DNA of 64,000 nt from a phage, in the NCBI GenBank assembly GCA_033580375.1, contig GCA_033580375.1_4527.1. The stretch is one strand, 5' to 3'. The notes below the pieces were generated by a model that saw only the letters and a list, made by a program, of their open reading frames with translations, was not told the DNA's origin and did not search any database. Positions 19,279 to 56,719 of the stretch are shown here, one piece after another. Position numbers and translations under genes: made by a program. Position 1 is the first letter of the stretch. Every line of letters begins with the position of its first letter.

Positions 19279-19433
19279 AAGTACCTCTTGGCTCAATTCA
19301 TAGGTCTATTATATCATAATATTTAGAGACCTATCTTAAAGCACGAGATACTATCAAAGATACGTAACTTTCATAAAGTTGACGACTTAAAATTCACCAA
19401 ACTTTTCTTCGGTTATAGCAATTCGAGATAGTT

Positions 19434-27956: not shown

Positions 27957-28916
27957 TTATGATTTTAATGCATTCATTGCGTTAAAAAGTTTAGAGTACT
28001 GCAACTGGAGATTGGTCACCACCTGTTGAGCATCACGAAGCTTAGCTTGTGCTTTATCAAGTTCAACGGATAGTTGGTCTACAGTGGCCTTGATTTGATT
28101 ATAATGGTAGTCTTCGGCAGGAAGAAGGTCATTAGAAACATTTAGTTTTACTGCAGACAGTTTGCACACATTTGGCAAACCTTTAAACATACCAGATTGT
28201 GCTGGAGAATATGCACCTAGAACCTCTGCATTACCGACTGGTGTTGCTGTAATATTGCCTTCAAACAATGCATTTTCCTTTTTAAGATTTTGATAGTATT
28301 CAGAGTCTTTGTGCCACCATGGTGCAGGAACCTTTTTACCAATAGATACACGAGCTTGGATAGCGATATGGCCCTTATTCTTGATAAGGTCGACAATATT
28401 AAGCTCACGAGAATAAATTGCTTTAATCTGGTGGATATTATCACCTAAAACTTCCAACGCTTGGTGGAATACACGAGCAACGTTATCATTCTTAGGTTTA
28501 TACGTAAGAGTGAACTCATTCTCACTGATAACCATGATTTCCAACTTATCGTAAGTATATTTCAAATGTTTCATGTTAATTGCTTGAGGACGAATACGAG
28601 AAGCAATGGCCATCAGATTGTTAAGGTTATTCCGGAACTGCTTAGCGAAATATTGTCCTTCACCGTCAATACAAAAATTACGAAGTTTCTGTTTGGCTAA
28701 TAAACGGCTGAACTCACCATTTTTAATGAACTCTTTAACGGGTGTGTTAGTAACGCATTCAAATTGAGTAAACTTACGAGAAGTAATCCCATAATACGAA
28801 CAGACTTCCTCAATCTCTTCAGGAGTCTTTACAGGCATACGGATAGGATTAGGTCCTGGAGTATATGCGTTCGAGGTAAATTCTTTGATAAGTTCTCTAC
28901 GTGTAATAAAAGACAT
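27957..28916 (-). CDS. Hypothetical protein with C-terminal coiled coil, 319 aa
   Basis: Intact ORF with own promoter. Confidence 0.65.
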   Translation of the reverse strand: MSFITRRELIKEFTSNAYTPGPNPIRMPVKTPEEIEEVCSYYGITSRKFTQFECVTNTPVKEFIKNGEFSRLLAKQKLRNFCIDGEGQYFAKQFRNNLNNLMAIASRIRPQAINMKHLKYTYDKLEIMVISENEFTLTYKPKNDNVARVFHQALEVLGDNIHQIKAIYSRELNIVDLIKNKGHIAIQARVSIGKKVPAPWWHKDSEYYQNLKKENALFEGNITATPVGNAEVLGAYSPAQSGMFKGLPNVCKLSAVKLNVSNDLLPAEDYHYNQIKATVDQLSVELDKAQAKLRDAQQVVTNLQLQYSKLFNAMNALKS

Positions 28917-30557: not shown

Positions 30558-30583
30558 GTTTTACCTCCAGTAGTTGATAGGTC

Positions 30584-30613
30584 TATAATAACATAACCAT
30601 AGACCTTGTAAAC
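30584..30613 (-). promoter_or_regulatory. Early promoter (GTTTACA-17-TATTAT) with AGGTCTAT/ATAGACCT inverted repeat
   Basis: Read directly. Confidence 0.5.
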
Positions 30614-30615
30614 AA

Positions 30616-30891
30616 CTAAAAGAAACTTTTTTCGGTATTTTTTCCACTGAACCAAACAGACTTCGGGATTTTTTGTAATTTTTCAGATTTAAGTTTCTCT
30701 TCCTGTTCTTTCTTATACGCATCCTTGTCGTACTGGAGCATCTCTATGGCATTCTTTTGCAAACGATCTAAGGTAATTAAGGCTTTAGTTTTTCCTTTCA
30801 AGGAAGAGTCCTGGCGAACCTCCTCGCTATATTGTTCTGTTGCACTAATCATACGATGGGCATATAATTCACGACTGGCTTGGATATTCAT
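30616..30891 (-). CDS. Hypothetical protein, 91 aa
   Basis: ORF. Confidence 0.5.
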   Translation of the reverse strand: MNIQASRELYAHRMISATEQYSEEVRQDSSLKGKTKALITLDRLQKNAIEMLQYDKDAYKKEQEEKLKSEKLQKIPKSVWFSGKNTEKSFF

Positions 30892-30898
30892 AATTTCC

Positions 30899-31891
30899 TC
30901 ATTTCAGTAAAGTTACTTCGGAGATTTCCTCCCAACCATCTTTATCAGTTGAAATAAAATCTGCTACATAAAGAGCCGTACGTAATGATACATTGCGAAG
31001 ACGAGATATGTTAGCCTTCATCCAGGACAATGCTTTGTACGTTTCTGCATCCGTCAGGCCACGTTTCTGCATCATGTCAGTAGATAATATTACATCTTCA
31101 ACTCGGACCATAATCTCTTCATTAGAGTGTACTCCAAGGTCCAAATACACTGAACGAGATACTAAAGCTTGAAGGTGTGGAGCAAGTTTCGAACCGCGTT
31201 CTAACTCTTTATCGATATCAACGTTTGTAATGAAAACGATAGTACCTTCAAACTCAAATTCTTTATCTATACCCTTATCATCAAGATAAGATGATGCAGT
31301 GCTCCAGCAAACTTTGCGTTTATCGCCAGTATCTAATGCTGCTTTAAGAAGGTTCAAGATGTCCATATCAGAGAATACGTCAACGTCATCGATTAAGAGA
31401 ACGCTGTCTGCATCACGGTTGAGCCAAAGTTGTTCGTAAAGGCCAATACCAGAGATTTTGCCATTAATGCTTTTGTATTTGATGAAACCATTATCATTAG
31501 CATTATTAAGCGCTTTATCCAGAGAATATGTCTTACCAATACCGGCTGCACCTGAAATAATGAGTGAACGAATTTTGCCATCGATAATGCCATTCGTCAT
31601 CATGTTCATTACTTTAAAGCGTTTGTTGATACGAGTTTTCATATCTTCAGCGTTTTCAACAACTGCAACTGGTGATGTCTCAACTCCTTCCATTACGATG
31701 TCTGATTTGAAGACCCATACTCCACGTTCAGAACCATCAATCATAACGAAAATTTTACCGTCACCTAAGTGGGAACATTCAGGATTAAGCTTTGCCGGGA
31801 ACCATGTCTTTGTGGCAACATAAGAACCAGAGATTTCGTTATTACGATAGATACCTTTTTTGATTTGAACGTTGAACATTTTATTCTCCAA
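30899..31891 (-). CDS. P-loop ATPase (AAA-like), 330 aa
   Basis: Walker A GAAGIGKT and Walker B LLIDDVD. Confidence 0.7.
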   Translation of the reverse strand: MENKMFNVQIKKGIYRNNEISGSYVATKTWFPAKLNPECSHLGDGKIFVMIDGSERGVWVFKSDIVMEGVETSPVAVVENAEDMKTRINKRFKVMNMMTNGIIDGKIRSLIISGAAGIGKTYSLDKALNNANDNGFIKYKSINGKISGIGLYEQLWLNRDADSVLLIDDVDVFSDMDILNLLKAALDTGDKRKVCWSTASSYLDDKGIDKEFEFEGTIVFITNVDIDKELERGSKLAPHLQALVSRSVYLDLGVHSNEEIMVRVEDVILSTDMMQKRGLTDAETYKALSWMKANISRLRNVSLRTALYVADFISTDKDGWEEISEVTLLK

Positions 31892-31918
31892 ATTTACTCA
31901 TTTCGTTTCGATAGGTCT

Positions 31919-31947
31919 ATAATAACATGTTTAAAGCAAAAGTAAAC
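31919..31947 (-). promoter_or_regulatory. Early promoter (GTTTAC-17-TATTAT)
   Basis: gataggtctataataacat...gtaaac pattern. Confidence 0.5.
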
Positions 31948-31949
31948 AA

Positions 31950-32168
31950 TTATTTGCGACGAGATTTTTTGGTAAGAGGTTGAAAGAACACTGCTTTACC
32001 AGCAGGAGTCAAAGTGACTCGTAATGCATTACCGATTCCTAAGGATGCTTTAACTAGACCTTTAGCTTTCAGTTCACCGAATGCTTGACGTTGGTCTGCA
32101 TCACGAGTGTTAACCATAAGACCTTTATCACCAGCTTCACGAATCATTTCTAACATTTTGGTTTTCAT
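31950..32168 (-). CDS. Hypothetical small protein, 72 aa (possible winged-helix)
   Basis: ORF. Confidence 0.5.
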   Translation of the reverse strand: MKTKMLEMIREAGDKGLMVNTRDADQRQAFGELKAKGLVKASLGIGNALRVTLTPAGKAVFFQPLTKKSRRK

Positions 32169-32198
32169 TTTGTTTTCTCCTCTTGTTTTGATAGGTCT

Positions 32199-32226
32199 AT
32201 AATAACATATCCTAAAAGCATGTACA
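32199..32226 (-). promoter_or_regulatory. Early promoter (TGTACA-16-TATTAT)
   Basis: gataggtctataataacat...tgtaca. Confidence 0.45.
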
Positions 32227-32256
32227 CTACTTTTTAAAAATATTTTGACCCCCTAA

Positions 32257-32272
32257 AGGGCCCGAAGGCCCT
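32257..32272 (-). terminator. GC hairpin AGGGCC-uucg-GGCCCU immediately after the NTase-like gene stop (weak U-run)
   Basis: Perfect 6-bp stem with UUCG loop; may be a stability or processing element rather than a terminator. Confidence 0.3.
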
Positions 32273-32274
32273 TA

Positions 32275-33264
32275 TCATTTATAGTATGAATTGTGGTTTT
32301 CTAAGTAGACTTGCTCAAGGAAGTCATCCCAGAAACTCATATCTACTTTTTGCTGCATACCGTTCTTAGCAGCTTGTTCTGCCGCATGTTCAACTTGGTC
32401 AACGATATCTTCTAGGAATTCTTGTACGGTTTTAAACGTATGTTTACCAAGCTTAACATCGAGAATAAATGGAGCATCCTGAAGCGGGTAAACCAGGTCG
32501 CCGGTTTTGTAAATTTCTAAGAGCTGAAGTCCACCACGGCATGCGTGACTCAATGCTTTCCAATCAATACCTTCATTGGCTTCTGCCTTACGAGCACGTT
32601 CACCGTAGTTCTCTTCAAGTTTAACCAGGATGGCATTGAACTCTTTGTTAGTTAACGTATCTTGGAATTTACGGTCTAACAGATTATAGAATGTTTGCTT
32701 ACCTGTTTTCTCGTTTTCGGTTTCAACCCATGAAGCAAATTCACCTACAGGCAGAACATTCTTCATATGTGATAAACGAATTACTGCACCATTATCAAAG
32801 TATTGTCCCCATTCATTAGAACGTTTAAGGGCTTGACGAAGAACAGCCAGTCGAGAACCCTTGACACCGTATTTAGAAGCTTGCTTACGGACATACCCTA
32901 AATAAGATTTCATGTTAGTAGTATAGAAACGAGACCTGTTATCTTGAATATACTTCCATACATCAGGCAAATCAGATTTAACTACTAGACTTGGTGGAGT
33001 GTGAAGCATATCTAATGCGACAGTTTCACCATCTGCAGCTAGTTTAAAGAAATATTTGAGACTATATAACTCATGGTCCACGTCGTCTTTTGTGTTCTTA
33101 GAAGATGTGTTATTCGTGTTCTTGCTCATATGTTCTTTAACGTTACCGGTCAAAATATCACGAGCATGAGGGACATAAATTTCTTTAAAATCGACGTCAG
33201 ATTCAGGAGTAGACGTTCCATAAAGGTGGCTACCAAAGTAGCCTTTCATAATTGTTTTCATCAT
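32275..33264 (-). CDS. Pol-beta superfamily nucleotidyltransferase-like protein, 329 aa
   Basis: N-terminal FGSHLYGTSTPESDVDF fits the GSx(9-13)Dx[DE] minimal nucleotidyltransferase motif. Confidence 0.6.
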   Translation of the reverse strand: MMKTIMKGYFGSHLYGTSTPESDVDFKEIYVPHARDILTGNVKEHMSKNTNNTSSKNTKDDVDHELYSLKYFFKLAADGETVALDMLHTPPSLVVKSDLPDVWKYIQDNRSRFYTTNMKSYLGYVRKQASKYGVKGSRLAVLRQALKRSNEWGQYFDNGAVIRLSHMKNVLPVGEFASWVETENEKTGKQTFYNLLDRKFQDTLTNKEFNAILVKLEENYGERARKAEANEGIDWKALSHACRGGLQLLEIYKTGDLVYPLQDAPFILDVKLGKHTFKTVQEFLEDIVDQVEHAAEQAAKNGMQQKVDMSFWDDFLEQVYLENHNSYYK

Positions 33265-33734
33265 TTAGCCTTATATTCAAGAGTAGGACAGACTTTTTCT
33301 TTACGAGCTTTAAGGTATTCACCTATTAATGATTTCTTACGTTCAATAGGCTCAAGTCCATTTTTAATTCGTTCTTGGTTTTGTGCAATGAGCTCAACTT
33401 CTTTATAATACTTCCGCTCTCTGTATAAGTCGATTAGCCATGGTATGCCTAATACTAAAACTATAGAAATACCAACACATAATGCAATGAATAAAACACC
33501 TACACCAATTGAGGCCGGAACTAATGTCCATAAACTACTAAAGACAAAGAATTTAGTTAAAATTTCCTGGCCAATGATTGTGGCTGCTGCTAAAATCGCA
33601 AATCCAATAATCGAAACAAACAATACAGGGAGAAACGTTTTCCAAAAATAAGCACACAGCGTTTTCGGACGATTCCATGTACTATTGAACGCGGCATAAA
33701 TTTTAAAGTGCCAAGAGTTTTCATTGATAATCAT
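33261..33734 (-). CDS. Hypothetical polytopic membrane protein, 157 aa
   Basis: Three or four hydrophobic helices. Confidence 0.6.
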   Translation of the reverse strand: MIINENSWHFKIYAAFNSTWNRPKTLCAYFWKTFLPVLFVSIIGFAILAAATIIGQEILTKFFVFSSLWTLVPASIGVGVLFIALCVGISIVLVLGIPWLIDLYRERKYYKEVELIAQNQERIKNGLEPIERKKSLIGEYLKARKEKVCPTLEYKAK

Positions 33735-33743
33735 AATAATTCC

Positions 33744-34274
33744 TTATTTCAAAGTCGGGATAACAGAATCAAGATAAGCTTTAAGAGCAACAGCTTCGTC
33801 TTTGGTAAACGTAGTAATATGTGAACGTAAATCATCAATTTGGCGAATAACTACGACATCACCGTCTTCATAAGAAGGATTAACGCCCAAGACAGTTGTA
33901 GAGTCAGGGTTGGCCAGATTTGTAATAAAAGCATTACGGCATTTAGCCCATTGAAGTTTGGCCTTTTTGGCTGTTTCAGATTCAATGAATTCTTTCACCT
34001 TAGTGACGAATGTTTTCCAATTATTAATAGAAAAACATTCGTCTTCAGTTTCGATATTAACCCCACTATAAAGTCCGTGATAAAAACGAACTTGAAGGTC
34101 TTCATCAATGTTAATTACAGATGCATGGCCTGGTGGATTTAGTTTCAAAATCTTGTCCAGTTCCATAGGAAGAATAGTAACAGCATCATCTTCTTGTGTC
34201 AGAACGTAAGCGTAACCACGTTTTTCGATACATAAATCACCAAACAACTCAGTTGTTTCAATTACAGTTTTCAT
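33744..34274 (-). CDS. Hypothetical protein, about 176 aa
   Basis: ATG 34272-34274 (ORF track start 34286 is TTG). Confidence 0.6.
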   Translation of the reverse strand: MKTVIETTELFGDLCIEKRGYAYVLTQEDDAVTILPMELDKILKLNPPGHASVINIDEDLQVRFYHGLYSGVNIETEDECFSINNWKTFVTKVKEFIESETAKKAKLQWAKCRNAFITNLANPDSTTVLGVNPSYEDGDVVVIRQIDDLRSHITTFTKDEAVALKAYLDSVIPTLK

Positions 34275-34275
34275 A

Positions 34276-34455
34276 TTATTCACCAATTAAAGTTTCAACA
34301 AAATTCACCAAATCATTCAGACAAGCATCAACCTGATTTTCATAAAACTCTTCGTTATCATTTACCGCATGATAAGCTACATCATTCAAATCTGAATCGG
34401 CTTCACGTAAGTTACGGATAAGTTCCATCAATTTATTAGCTTGTTCACGGGTCAT
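34276..34455 (-). CDS. Hypothetical acidic protein, 59 aa (not in ORF track)
   Basis: Hand translation MTREQANKLMELIRNLREADSDLNDVAYHAVNDNEEFYENQVDACLNDLVNFVETLIGE. Confidence 0.4.
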   Translation of the reverse strand: MTREQANKLMELIRNLREADSDLNDVAYHAVNDNEEFYENQVDACLNDLVNFVETLIGE

Positions 34456-52280: not shown

Positions 52281-52357
<77 letters not shown>

Positions 52358-52363
52358 AATATA

Positions 52364-52437
52364 TGACCCAGACCAGATTCGAACTGGTAACCTTTCCCTT
52401 ATGAGGGGACTGCTACTAACCGTTGAGCTACAGGGCC
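52364..52437 (-). tRNA. tRNA with CAU anticodon (Met, or Ile if lysidine-modified), 74 nt, no encoded CCA
   Basis: Hand-folded: acceptor GGCCCUG/CUGGGUC (one U-U mismatch), anticodon loop CUCAUAA, T-arm ACCAG-UUCGAAU-CUGGU. Confidence 0.7.
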
Positions 52438-54268: not shown

Positions 54269-54579
54269 TATTTTATGCCTTTAGATGAAATAGTGTTCTG
54301 GCGTTTAACCCCAGTTTGTGAAAAATCATGGTTATCAATTTGGTCAACTCGCATAACACCAAACGCAGATTTAATTTTGGCCTTTGAACCTTTTTTGATA
54401 CTAATTACCATATAAGTGTCATTTTTCTTATATTCGTAATTTGATACTTCAACGCCTTGATTAGAAATTGACTTAATAATAGCATTAGCGTATTCATCAT
54501 CTAACGGGCCGTTAGTGTTAATAACAAAATTTTTATCCGCTTTAGTAGCTTCCGCGATGAATTCTTGATAGGTTTTCAT
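54268..54579 (-). CDS. CTS-bearing internal protein (IPI position), 103 aa
   Basis: N-terminal MKTYQEFIAEA; adjacent to 57B as ipI is in T4. Confidence 0.6.
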   Translation of the reverse strand: MKTYQEFIAEATKADKNFVINTNGPLDDEYANAIIKSISNQGVEVSNYEYKKNDTYMVISIKKGSKAKIKSAFGVMRVDQIDNHDFSQTGVKRQNTISSKGIK

Positions 54580-54613
54580 TTTATTTCCTTGAGGTTGTTT
54601 ATTTGATAGGATG

Positions 54614-54653
54614 ATAGTAACACACCGTCATCCTTATGTAAACTGTTTTGTGA
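54614..54653 (-). promoter_or_regulatory. Early promoter with GGATGA/TCATCC inverted repeat
   Basis: gtaaac at 54648-54653 plus TAnnnT. Confidence 0.45.
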
Positions 54654-54656
54654 AAA

Positions 54657-55342
<686 letters not shown>

Positions 55343-55346
55343 TTTA

Positions 55347-56081
55347 TTACCTTAAGATTTTTTCAATTTTAGAATAAAGCTCTTCTAACGAGCCGTCGTT
55401 TGTAATAACTAAGTCGCCTTCTTCAATAGGCAACCCAGCTTCTGTAATATGTTTATCAGTGGATTCCGTACCAGAGCGAACCACATGAATAACTGTAGCA
55501 CCCATCGCTCTAGCGGTTTCCATTTCATGGACTTGGCGTGTATCGGTCACAACGTAGTAATCGAAATCACTTCCAATATAATCCATATAGTTTAATGCAA
55601 AAAGCTTAACCCAATACATACGGTCAAATAAATTAACGACAACATCCGTACCGAGGGCTTGCATAAGACGGCGGATCGACCATGTGTCGTTGATATTATT
55701 TATAGCTTCACGCAGGGCTTCGTACGGTTTAATATCTAGATATGAATATCCACCTTCTAGTGATGATAATACGTTAACACCATTAATTGGCAGGTATTGT
55801 CGTTGTAAATAAATTAGTGTTTCTTCCATTAATTCAATAACATCCAATTTATTGAGATTTAATGGTGTTTCACGGTCGTATCCAATGCCTTCAAAGTATT
55901 CATATTTCAACTCGGTGAATACATCAGGGTTTTCGGCATGTTTACGCTCCCAAGCTATTGCTAGAGCGTCTTTAATTGGATATGCTAATTGATATTTTAT
56001 GGATTTAAAGTTTGAATTGATGTAATCAGCAGTAGTGTCTTTACCACTACGTTTGATGCCGCTTAAAAAGATTAGCTCCAT
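55347..56081 (-). CDS. 1: Deoxynucleoside monophosphate kinase gp1, 244 aa
   Basis: MELIFLSGIKRSGKDTTADYI...ARAMGATVIHVVRSGTESTDKHITEAGLPI matches T4 gp1 as recalled. Confidence 0.9.
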   Translation of the reverse strand: MELIFLSGIKRSGKDTTADYINSNFKSIKYQLAYPIKDALAIAWERKHAENPDVFTELKYEYFEGIGYDRETPLNLNKLDVIELMEETLIYLQRQYLPINGVNVLSSLEGGYSYLDIKPYEALREAINNINDTWSIRRLMQALGTDVVVNLFDRMYWVKLFALNYMDYIGSDFDYYVVTDTRQVHEMETARAMGATVIHVVRSGTESTDKHITEAGLPIEEGDLVITNDGSLEELYSKIEKILR

Positions 56082-56134
56082 AGGTTTTCCTCATATAATT
56101 TATGAACGATTATAACATATGGAGCTAGAAGCGA

Positions 56135-56719
56135 TTAACGCAAGGAAGGGTGTCTAGAAATGGATTTAGATTCGGCTGCTTGACGAGGCTGTTGAGATAC
56201 AATGACTTCACCGTCTTTTTCTATCGTCATATACGCGTAGTGAATAGTTGCTACGCACGTAACGGCAGGATCAGAATCTTCAGTGTAACTAAATTCAATT
56301 TCGCTCAAATCAGAAATCCATGGTTTATAGAAATTTGCCGTCAAAACTACTTCCGTCTTATTGTTGTTTAAAATGTGCAAAGTAACAAACTCAGGACCAT
56401 CGGCATGGGCTGTATTATGACCGGTTATATAGTTATTAGTGCTGAGCATCCATTTATACATGTTCATCCAGGACGTCATGTCTTCATCAACTATAAATCG
56501 TACAATAAAAGGGTCATATTCAAATGTAGTGCCTGCACGCATTGCACGCCCTAGCCCCATTGTGCCTGTCACAGTTTCAACAACAGGAATTCTCACACCT
56601 GGCAATGGTGCTGTTTGGGCGTTGAGCACAAAACCTGAAGTTCGTGTACTATCCGGGATATCCACAACAAAGTTTGTTATATTTGTTTGGTTAAAAATCT
56701 GTCTCGCTGGACGAGTCAT
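56135..56719 (-). CDS. 3: Tail completion / sheath stabiliser gp3, about 194 aa
   Basis: Synteny 1-3-2-4; ATG 56717-56719 (ORF track start 56725 is GTG). Confidence 0.65.
   Translation of the reverse strand: MTRPARQIFNQTNITNFVVDIPDSTRTSGFVLNAQTAPLPGVRIPVVETVTGTMGLGRAMRAGTTFEYDPFIVRFIVDEDMTSWMNMYKWMLSTNNYITGHNTAHADGPEFVTLHILNNNKTEVVLTANFYKPWISDLSEIEFSYTEDSDPAVTCVATIHYAYMTIEKDGEVIVSQQPRQAAESKSISRHPSLR

Follow-up and report, generated by a model that had tools for sequence, protein, structure and literature searches.

What a polymerase beta (Pol-beta) type nucleotidyltransferase (NTase) does for a T4-like phage, and whether it does so together with the genes beside it, is the question raised by three minus-strand open reading frames (ORFs) at positions 30899 to 33264 of a 64,000-nucleotide (nt) stretch of phage DNA (NCBI GenBank assembly GCA_033580375.1, contig GCA_033580375.1_4527.1; the whole stretch is referred to as the window). 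As an earlier reading made from the letters alone (the sequence-only reading) had listed them, the ORFs are an NTase gene at 32275-33264 (329 amino acids, aa), a small ORF at 31950-32168 (72 aa, referred to as orf72) and an ATPase gene at 30899-31891 (330 aa if counted from a TTG codon). All three were considered real genes because homologs were recovered from many phage records (1543 for the NTase, 1312 for the ATPase and 138 for orf72). By sequence, the 329-aa protein is assigned as the ortholog of T4 NrdC.11 and a member of the RlaP family. By analogy with bacterial members of that family, it is likely to be an RNA-repair nucleotidyltransferase, an accessory counter-defense enzyme that would help PseT and RnlA reseal trimmed tRNAs.

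The family assignment was made by comparing the NTase to profile databases. The minimal-NTase motif that had been noticed, FGSHLYGTSTPESDVDF, was present and the Pol-beta call was correct. The protein matched the Pfam family RlaP (PF10127, “RNA repair pathway DNA polymerase beta family”) at 48.7 bits, where the gathering threshold is 23 (E = 1e-12), and it matched PHROG 388, “nucleotidyltransferase,” at 1e-126. PF10127 was also carried by all 120 close NTase homologs among the matches listed. The initial homolog search returned only sequences at least 98% identical to the NTase, so in order to obtain a usable alignment a second search was seeded with the Aeh1 ortholog. In the resulting 68-sequence alignment, G11, S12, D23, D25 and a third acidic residue, D85, were invariant, and the protein thereby carries the Pol-beta catalytic signature (G[GS], DxD and a third acidic residue); the same five residues were kept in homologs that adjoin RNA-repair genes. 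Invariant positions in the C-terminal part were R223, D234, W235, K236, H240 and R243. An exhaustive search yielded 3216 representatives (50% clustering), and because most of these aligned nearly end to end, the C-terminal half was taken to belong to the conserved architecture. An NTase domain at the N terminus and a HEPN-like helical domain at the C terminus make up the protein, and use of a second ATG would shorten it to 328 aa. The sequence-only reading had named confident assignment to a housekeeping family, such as a CCA-adding enzyme fragment, as grounds for its rejection; in spirit this is what happened, except that the family is RlaP and not that of the CCA-adding enzymes. That NrdC.11 is an RlaP RNA-repair nucleotidyltransferase had been published before, and some database entries are annotated accordingly (for example “RNA repair pathway DNA polymerase beta family protein”).

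The region had been described as having no T4 counterpart, which is true of the 72-aa ORF alone; the NTase is 78% identical to T4 NrdC.11 (NP_049709) and the ATPase is 77% identical to T4 NrdC.10 (NP_049708). In T4, nrdC.10 (54343-55320) and nrdC.11 (55435-56445) are neighbors and follow the order seen in the window, and their orientation and placement between mobD.1 and nrdC.9 are shared, as are a matching hairpin, promoter and ribosome-binding site downstream of nrdC.11. T4 differs in that the homing endonuclease gene mobD lies upstream of nrdC.11, where the window phage has a membrane-protein ORF, and in that it has neither the 72-aa ORF nor a second promoter copy between nrdC.11 and nrdC.10. 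The window itself is from an RB69-like Mosigvirus: its 3.3-kilobase (kb) stretch around these genes shares 98% identity with phage phiC120 and 96.7% with RB69, whose record names the three genes nrdC.11 (nucleotidyltransferase), RB69ORF102c and nrdC.10. Many GenBank phage genomes label nrdC.10, nrdC.11 and neighboring genes “thioredoxin,” an annotation error that probably spread from the nrdC.x gene names.

What the RlaP family does is known from its bacterial members. As quoted in two papers, RlaP was named in 2016 (Burroughs and Aravind) for the linkage of its genes to RNA ligases and was predicted to replace nucleotides lost from damaged RNA ahead of ligation (PMC7824862, PMC12776372). Two Pseudomonas enzymes, PfRlaP and PaRlaP, were characterized biochemically in a December 2025 preprint; these append one or two nucleoside monophosphates to RNA 3′-OH ends with any nucleoside triphosphate (NTP) as the source, prefer Mn2+, and do not use DNA or proteins as substrates (PMC12776372). 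In the same study, RlaP that was given a cleaved-tRNA mimic favored the 3′ end left on the 5′ tRNA half above the natural 3′ end, aminoacylation was raised for a repaired tRNA that had lost one anticodon-loop nucleotide, and T4 NrdC.11 was named within the PF10127 network, in cluster 5 (PMC12776372). The crystal structure of PfRlaP has an N-terminal NTase domain and a C-terminal helical domain, with the final helix packed back on the NTase domain. The window NTase resembles these enzymes in its catalytic Asp triad, in the two-domain order predicted for it and in its above-threshold Pfam match.

A further likeness came from gene context. Bacterial and archaeal genomes were scanned with the NrdC.11 alignment, and 80 of the 161 loci obtained were kept (33-52% identity over the whole protein). 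Neighboring genes at these 80 loci were clustered and cluster representatives were scanned against Pfam. The recurrent neighbors were RtcB (7 loci), Pnkp (7), Hen1 (5) and Ro60/TROVE (4), and the RtcB and Pnkp (kinase-phosphatase-ligase) genes directly abutted the NTase homolog. When only loci flanked by 3 kb or more in each direction were counted, 10 of 48 had an RNA-repair neighbor. Among phages, an RlaP homolog of Phaeobacter phage MD18 (locus L170, 5001-5990; 28% identity to the window NTase, Pfam RlaP 47.9 bits) sits in the middle of a tRNA gene array and is flanked by tRNA genes on either side. In RB69, pseT and rnlA encode polynucleotide kinase/phosphatase and RNA ligase 1, the pair that carries out classical tRNA repair in T4; their presence and the placement in MD18 both fit a tRNA-directed repair role.

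By analogy with PfRlaP and PaRlaP, the window NTase most likely extends RNA 3′-OH ends by one or two nucleotides. In the proposed mechanism, a two-metal Asp triad (D23, D25 and D85) would catalyze the addition of one or two nucleotides, from any NTP, to a broken RNA 3′-OH, and the helical domain at the C terminus would supply the cleft of the active site with its RNA-binding side. PseT would first remove the cyclic phosphate, and NrdC.11 would then extend the 3′-OH of the 5′ tRNA half, replacing the nucleotide trimmed from the anticodon loop by an RloC-type host anticodon nuclease. RnlA, which requires 3′-OH and 5′-phosphate ends, would then seal the loop to give a functional tRNA. RloC excises the wobble nucleotide and was proposed in 2008 to defeat repair by T4 Pnk/Rnl1; RlaP activity would be an answer to RloC. 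On a laboratory host, T4 tolerates deletion of the block that runs from nrdC.11 to mobD.3, and this dispensability is as expected of a counter-defense accessory gene. A counter-defense role, which the sequence-only reading had offered as one option, fits a family of RNA-repair enzymes thought to undo anticodon-nuclease damage. The analysis shows that the protein belongs to RlaP, is orthologous to T4 NrdC.11, retains the catalytic residues and models as a two-domain fold, that its cellular homologs occur among RNA-repair genes, and that RB69-type genomes encode PseT and RnlA; the enzymatic activity of this particular protein and its target in vivo are inferred.

Several observations weigh against an RNA-repair role. 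The activity data come from the bacterial PfRlaP and PaRlaP and not from phage members, and in the PF10127 network the characterized enzymes fall in cluster 1a, a different cluster from T4 NrdC.11 (PMC12776372). RlaP shows little base specificity, so that faithful repair is hard to explain, a point raised in that study itself (PMC12776372). The Pfam profile was aligned to NTase residues 7-137 only (N-terminal 131 residues; profile positions 23-144 of 249), with the C-terminal half outside the match. Searches of PDB sequences with the NTase alone and with the 68-sequence profile found no relevant match, the RlaP crystal structure included, which therefore appears to be unreleased. The RNA-repair neighbors were present in only 15 of the 80 cellular loci, a raw count without a background rate. 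Finally, the phage NTase gene adjoins no RNA ligase or kinase and lies outside any RNA-ligase operon, with RB69 pseT and rnlA about 80 kb from nrdC.11.

Other activities of the NTase were weighed by using a predicted structure and the same family evidence. The AlphaFold model (predicted local distance difference test score, pLDDT, 90.8) consisted of an N-terminal Pol-beta NTase domain and a C-terminal half that is helical, carries a small beta insert and ends in a long helix. A Foldseek search of this model against the PDB gave no match at E ≤ 1e-3, and the weak matches were two-domain NTases, namely ANT(4′)/kanamycin nucleotidyltransferase, 3c18, Hailong HalB and LinB. Such matches could be read as a sign that the product of the protein is a nucleotide signal or an oligonucleotide, or that its substrate for nucleotidylation is a small molecule or a protein, in the manner of CD-NTases, Hailong HalB, aminoglycoside NTases and MNT antitoxins. 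The sequence-only reading had proposed nucleotide signaling, for which no support was obtained, and we consider any activity of this group very unlikely. The fold matches were all weak (Foldseek E ≥ 1.6e-3, template modeling (TM) score ≤ 0.3, identity 8-16%) and reflect the common minimal NTase fold, and no CD-NTase or cGAS match was found with Pfam, NCBIfam, PADLOC or the Foldseek fold matches; PADLOC and NCBIfam scans of all three proteins returned nothing meaningful. ANT(4′) and the MNT-HEPN pairs do share the layout, in which the minimal NTase domain comes first and a HEPN-like helical bundle second. They differ in identity (8-12%, TM ≤ 0.3), in their targets, which are antibiotics or toxins and not RNA ends, and in that the window NTase has a beta-meander insert at approximately residues 177-201 and no HEPN Rx4-6H motif. 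Hailong HalB, a defense NTase that synthesizes oligodeoxyadenylate, is 15% identical with an alignment confined to the NTase core, and it generates a host defense signal with another partner and in another context; the window NTase had no PADLOC match. The sequence family is instead RlaP, the characterized members of which modify RNA and not DNA or proteins, and the cellular homologs are in RNA-repair operons and not in defense or toxin-antitoxin loci. The role is thus most likely counter-defense and not nucleotide signaling. Somewhat less improbable, though still unlikely, is that the NTase extends RNA 3′ ends for another purpose, for example to mend the 3′ CCA of host or phage-encoded tRNAs or to put tails on transcripts of the host or the phage. 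When RlaP is given total E. coli RNA, many RNA species become labeled, and all four NTPs serve as substrates (PMC12776372), the distant MD18 homolog lies inside a tRNA gene array, and the window encodes phage tRNAs at 52281-52437. The in vitro preference of RlaP, which favors the 5′ tRNA half at its 3′ end above the natural 3′ end, argues the other way, as does a defining gene context of RNA ligases and end-healing enzymes. The Pfam scan gave no match to the PolyA_pol head domain of CCA-adding enzymes and poly(A) polymerases, and the NTase fold matches included no CCA-adding enzyme.

The remaining explanation concerns all three genes, and holds that their products (NTase, small basic protein and AAA+ ATPase) work as a single module, perhaps as sensor, regulator and motor, in for instance counter-defense or nucleotide signaling. 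A three-gene unit had been implied by the sequence-only reading, and the genes are indeed adjacent and co-oriented in the window and in other Mosigviruses. In order to follow this arrangement, 80 viral loci were gathered via the ATPase. Just upstream of the ATPase, at 0.1-2.3 kb, the NTase was present in approximately 40 enterobacterial and Acinetobacter T4-like loci. Against this, no NTase was found within 10 kb of the ATPase in three close loci or in any of the 41 loci with an ATPase ≤ 56% identical (Aeromonas 44RR-type, KVP40 and approximately 30 environmental loci at 33%); in a Rhodobacter siphophage, a Pseudomonas jumbo phage and ValKK3, too, the ATPase had no NTase beside it. The reverse was seen in Aeh1 and PVA23, which have the NTase but no ATPase next to it, and no ATPase homolog was present at any of the 80 cellular NTase loci. 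The small ORF is separable as well: in VR20 (Gaprivervirus; locus L169, 1389-3028) the order is nrdC.11, the orf72 homolog and nrdC.9, and nrdC.10 is missing from its usual place, so that the ATPase gene has naturally been lost or moved, and in JS98 the small ORF lies approximately 13 kb from nrdC.10. It was recovered from just 138 records, versus over 1300 in the case of either other gene, and separate promoter-like sites and a hairpin after the NTase gene further divide the three. A single module is therefore highly improbable. The ATPase gene and orf72 are separate early genes whose adjacency to the NTase gene is local synteny, and NrdC.10 evolves independently of the NTase, as distant phages keep the ATPase without it. 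The sequence-only reading was thus largely right about the proteins and wrong about their context, and its interpretation holds up only broadly, in that counter-defense is the probable role of the NTase.

How orf72 came to lie between two T4 orthologs can be read from the intergenic sequences. The protein is basic, as had been predicted (isoelectric point 10.8; 16 lysines and arginines versus 6 aspartates and glutamates), and it belongs to PHROG 6001 (phrog_6001 at 1e-42) and to no Pfam family. Pfam (E ≤ 10) and PDB sequence searches returned non-significant matches only, among them a MarR-family winged-helix chain (E = 0.48) and DUF7227 (E = 0.16). By sequence it is possibly a winged helix; because no significant Pfam or PDB relative was found, the label “DNA-binding” is a guess. 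It is not in T4 and is confined to the 138 phage records, and its JS98 homolog is located near e and nudE, where its neighbors are an RB69ORF134c-like gene on one side and an RB69ORF132c-like gene on the other. The T4 nrdC.11-nrdC.10 gap holds a single unit of hairpin, early promoter and ribosome-binding site. In the window, the hairpin and one promoter copy precede orf72, and a second copy of the promoter block with a T4-like ribosome-binding site precedes the ATPase gene, all on the minus strand.

The hairpin (32256-32273, GGGCC-UUCG-GGCCC followed by a T-rich run) was found by a terminator scan immediately 3′ of the NTase stop codon. The promoter-like site upstream of orf72 (32190-32226) consists of TGTACA, a 16-nt spacer and TATTAT with an extended TG; that upstream of the ATPase gene (31910-31946) consists of TTTACT, a 16-nt spacer and TATTAT with an extended TG, and is followed by the GGAG ribosome-binding site of that gene. 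Each of these sites holds one copy of a 19-nt block, ATGTTATTATAGACCTATC, which in early promoters of the T4 type takes in the extended -10 and the start region. In the window this block occurs in three exact copies, upstream of orf72 (32190-32208), nrdC.10 (31910-31928) and nrdC.8 (30576-30594), and in five more with three mismatches (at 19299, 20318, 38688, 46975 and 53902), where 0.02 would be expected by chance; all are on the minus strand. A generic scan for sigma-70-like sites in the region gave 13 versus 12.7 in shuffled sequences, no excess, so the promoter argument rests on the repeated 19-nt block. Likewise, the fold of the hairpin (-13.4 kcal/mol) was unexceptional against shuffles (z = -1.1), and the hairpin counts solely because its position is conserved with T4, where the same hairpin is found at the matching place. 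It is the terminator-like half of a promoter/stem-loop unit. The statement that each gene has its own early promoter accordingly held for orf72 and the ATPase gene, each preceded by ATGTTATTATAGACCTATC, and failed for the NTase gene, whose start codon and the stop codon of the membrane-protein ORF upstream share letters (ATGATG), with no intergenic promoter before it. Given this overlap, the membrane-protein ORF and the NTase gene are probably co-transcribed and translationally coupled.

The duplicated promoter block, set against the single unit of T4, gives an account of how orf72 arrived. In PeSL cassettes, a stem-loop and a T4-type early promoter shuffle small ORFs in hyperplastic regions of T4-type genomes (PMC2839356, PMC4122927). 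The arrangement in the window is alike in that a stem-loop and T4-type early promoter (TTTACW, N17, TAYWAT) flank a variable small ORF in a hyperplastic region, in that the promoter block is on both sides of orf72, and in that orf72 is at another locus in JS98. It is different in that the hairpin is present only on the upstream copy, in that recombination would have to be deduced from the arrangement, and in that the PeSL papers did not analyze RB69. We therefore describe orf72 as a clade-restricted, promoter-flanked insertion that resembles a PeSL cassette; its mobility would follow the PeSL mechanism by analogy, and the ATGTTATTATAGACCTATC repeats could have served as the recombination substrate for ORF shuffling.

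The ATPase gene was reported with the correct Walker A and Walker B motifs and with what is almost certainly an incorrect length. Because nearly all homologs are 326 aa long and TTG 31891 falls inside the GGAG ribosome-binding site, translation almost certainly starts at ATG 31879, giving a 326-aa protein (30899-31879, minus strand) and not one of 330 aa. The start of nrdC.10 is annotated inconsistently, as TTG in the mechanical ORF call (330 aa), as ATG in most homologs (326 aa) and as a 312-aa protein in RB69 RefSeq NC_004928 (53998-54936). The protein matched phrog_1250 at 1e-161, and its matches to the Pfam AAA families AAA_22 and AAA_16 were weak and below their thresholds. In 36 homologs, Walker A (GAAGIGKT), Walker B (LLIDDVD), sensor-1 (FITN) and arginines were invariant. 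An AlphaFold2 model (pLDDT 88.8) compared to the PDB with Foldseek gave 134 matches at E ≤ 1e-3, AAA+ proteins throughout among the matches listed, and these were about equal across dynein, NSF/Sec18, ClpA, NtrC1, RFC, RuvB, NorQ and ORC (TM approximately 0.4, identity 10-17%). NrdC.10 is thus a bona fide AAA+ ATPase of generic type, in which no clade stands out. It shares Walker A/B, sensor-1, conserved arginines and an alpha/beta core with a helical lid with RuvB, RFC, NtrC1, MoxR/NorQ and the NSF D-domains, and differs from them in a conserved, family-specific, beta-rich N-terminal domain of approximately 65 aa that is joined to the core by a variable linker. The family, for which 364 relatives were found, appears to be phage-restricted. 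In distant T4-like phages (ATPase approximately 33% identical), a UvsW-like DEAD/DEAH helicase gene was directly downstream of the ATPase gene in 28 of 41 loci and nrdB was upstream in 18, neighbors that hint at a DNA-metabolism role for this widely conserved ATPase. Loci with the ATPase-helicase pair are in environmental viral contigs (L056-L085; representative L076, 7385-8932). In 14 marine loci (L075, 950-1306, and 13 others), a 118-aa winged helix-turn-helix-like protein is encoded approximately 1.9 kb upstream of a NrdC.10-type ATPase; it was compared to orf72 and found to be unrelated (BLASTP E = 0.13).

Other features of the window were annotated in the same manner. The ORF upstream of the NTase gene (33261-33734, minus strand, 157 aa) matched phrog_944, a membrane protein, and has the same annotation in RB69. 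Beyond it, the MobD.1 ortholog (33744-34286, minus strand) matched the Pfam families T4_y05I_N (5e-41) and T4_y05I_C (8e-17), described as “y05I-like putative transcription factor.” NrdC.9 (30616-30891) matched DUF7203 and NrdC.5 (27957-28916) matched DUF7235. The sole Rfam and ARAGORN matches in the window were two minus-strand tRNA genes, tRNA-Arg(tct) and tRNA-Met(cat), at 52281-52357 and 52364-52437.

As a discovery, the identity of this NTase matters little, since it is an ortholog of T4 nrdC.11 and the RlaP family was named in 2016 and characterized in 2025 with T4 NrdC.11 cited as a member. The remaining question is whether T-even phages pair NrdC.11 with PseT and RnlA in order to survive nucleotide-removing anticodon nucleases. 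Comparative genomics together with bacterial RlaP biochemistry has led to the prediction that NrdC.11 is the missing third enzyme of T-even tRNA repair, which would restore the wobble nucleotide excised by RloC before healing and sealing by PseT and RnlA; we put this forward tentatively, as an idea with somewhat more doubt than confidence attached to it. If it is true, T-even phages would resist a defense that has been thought repair-proof.

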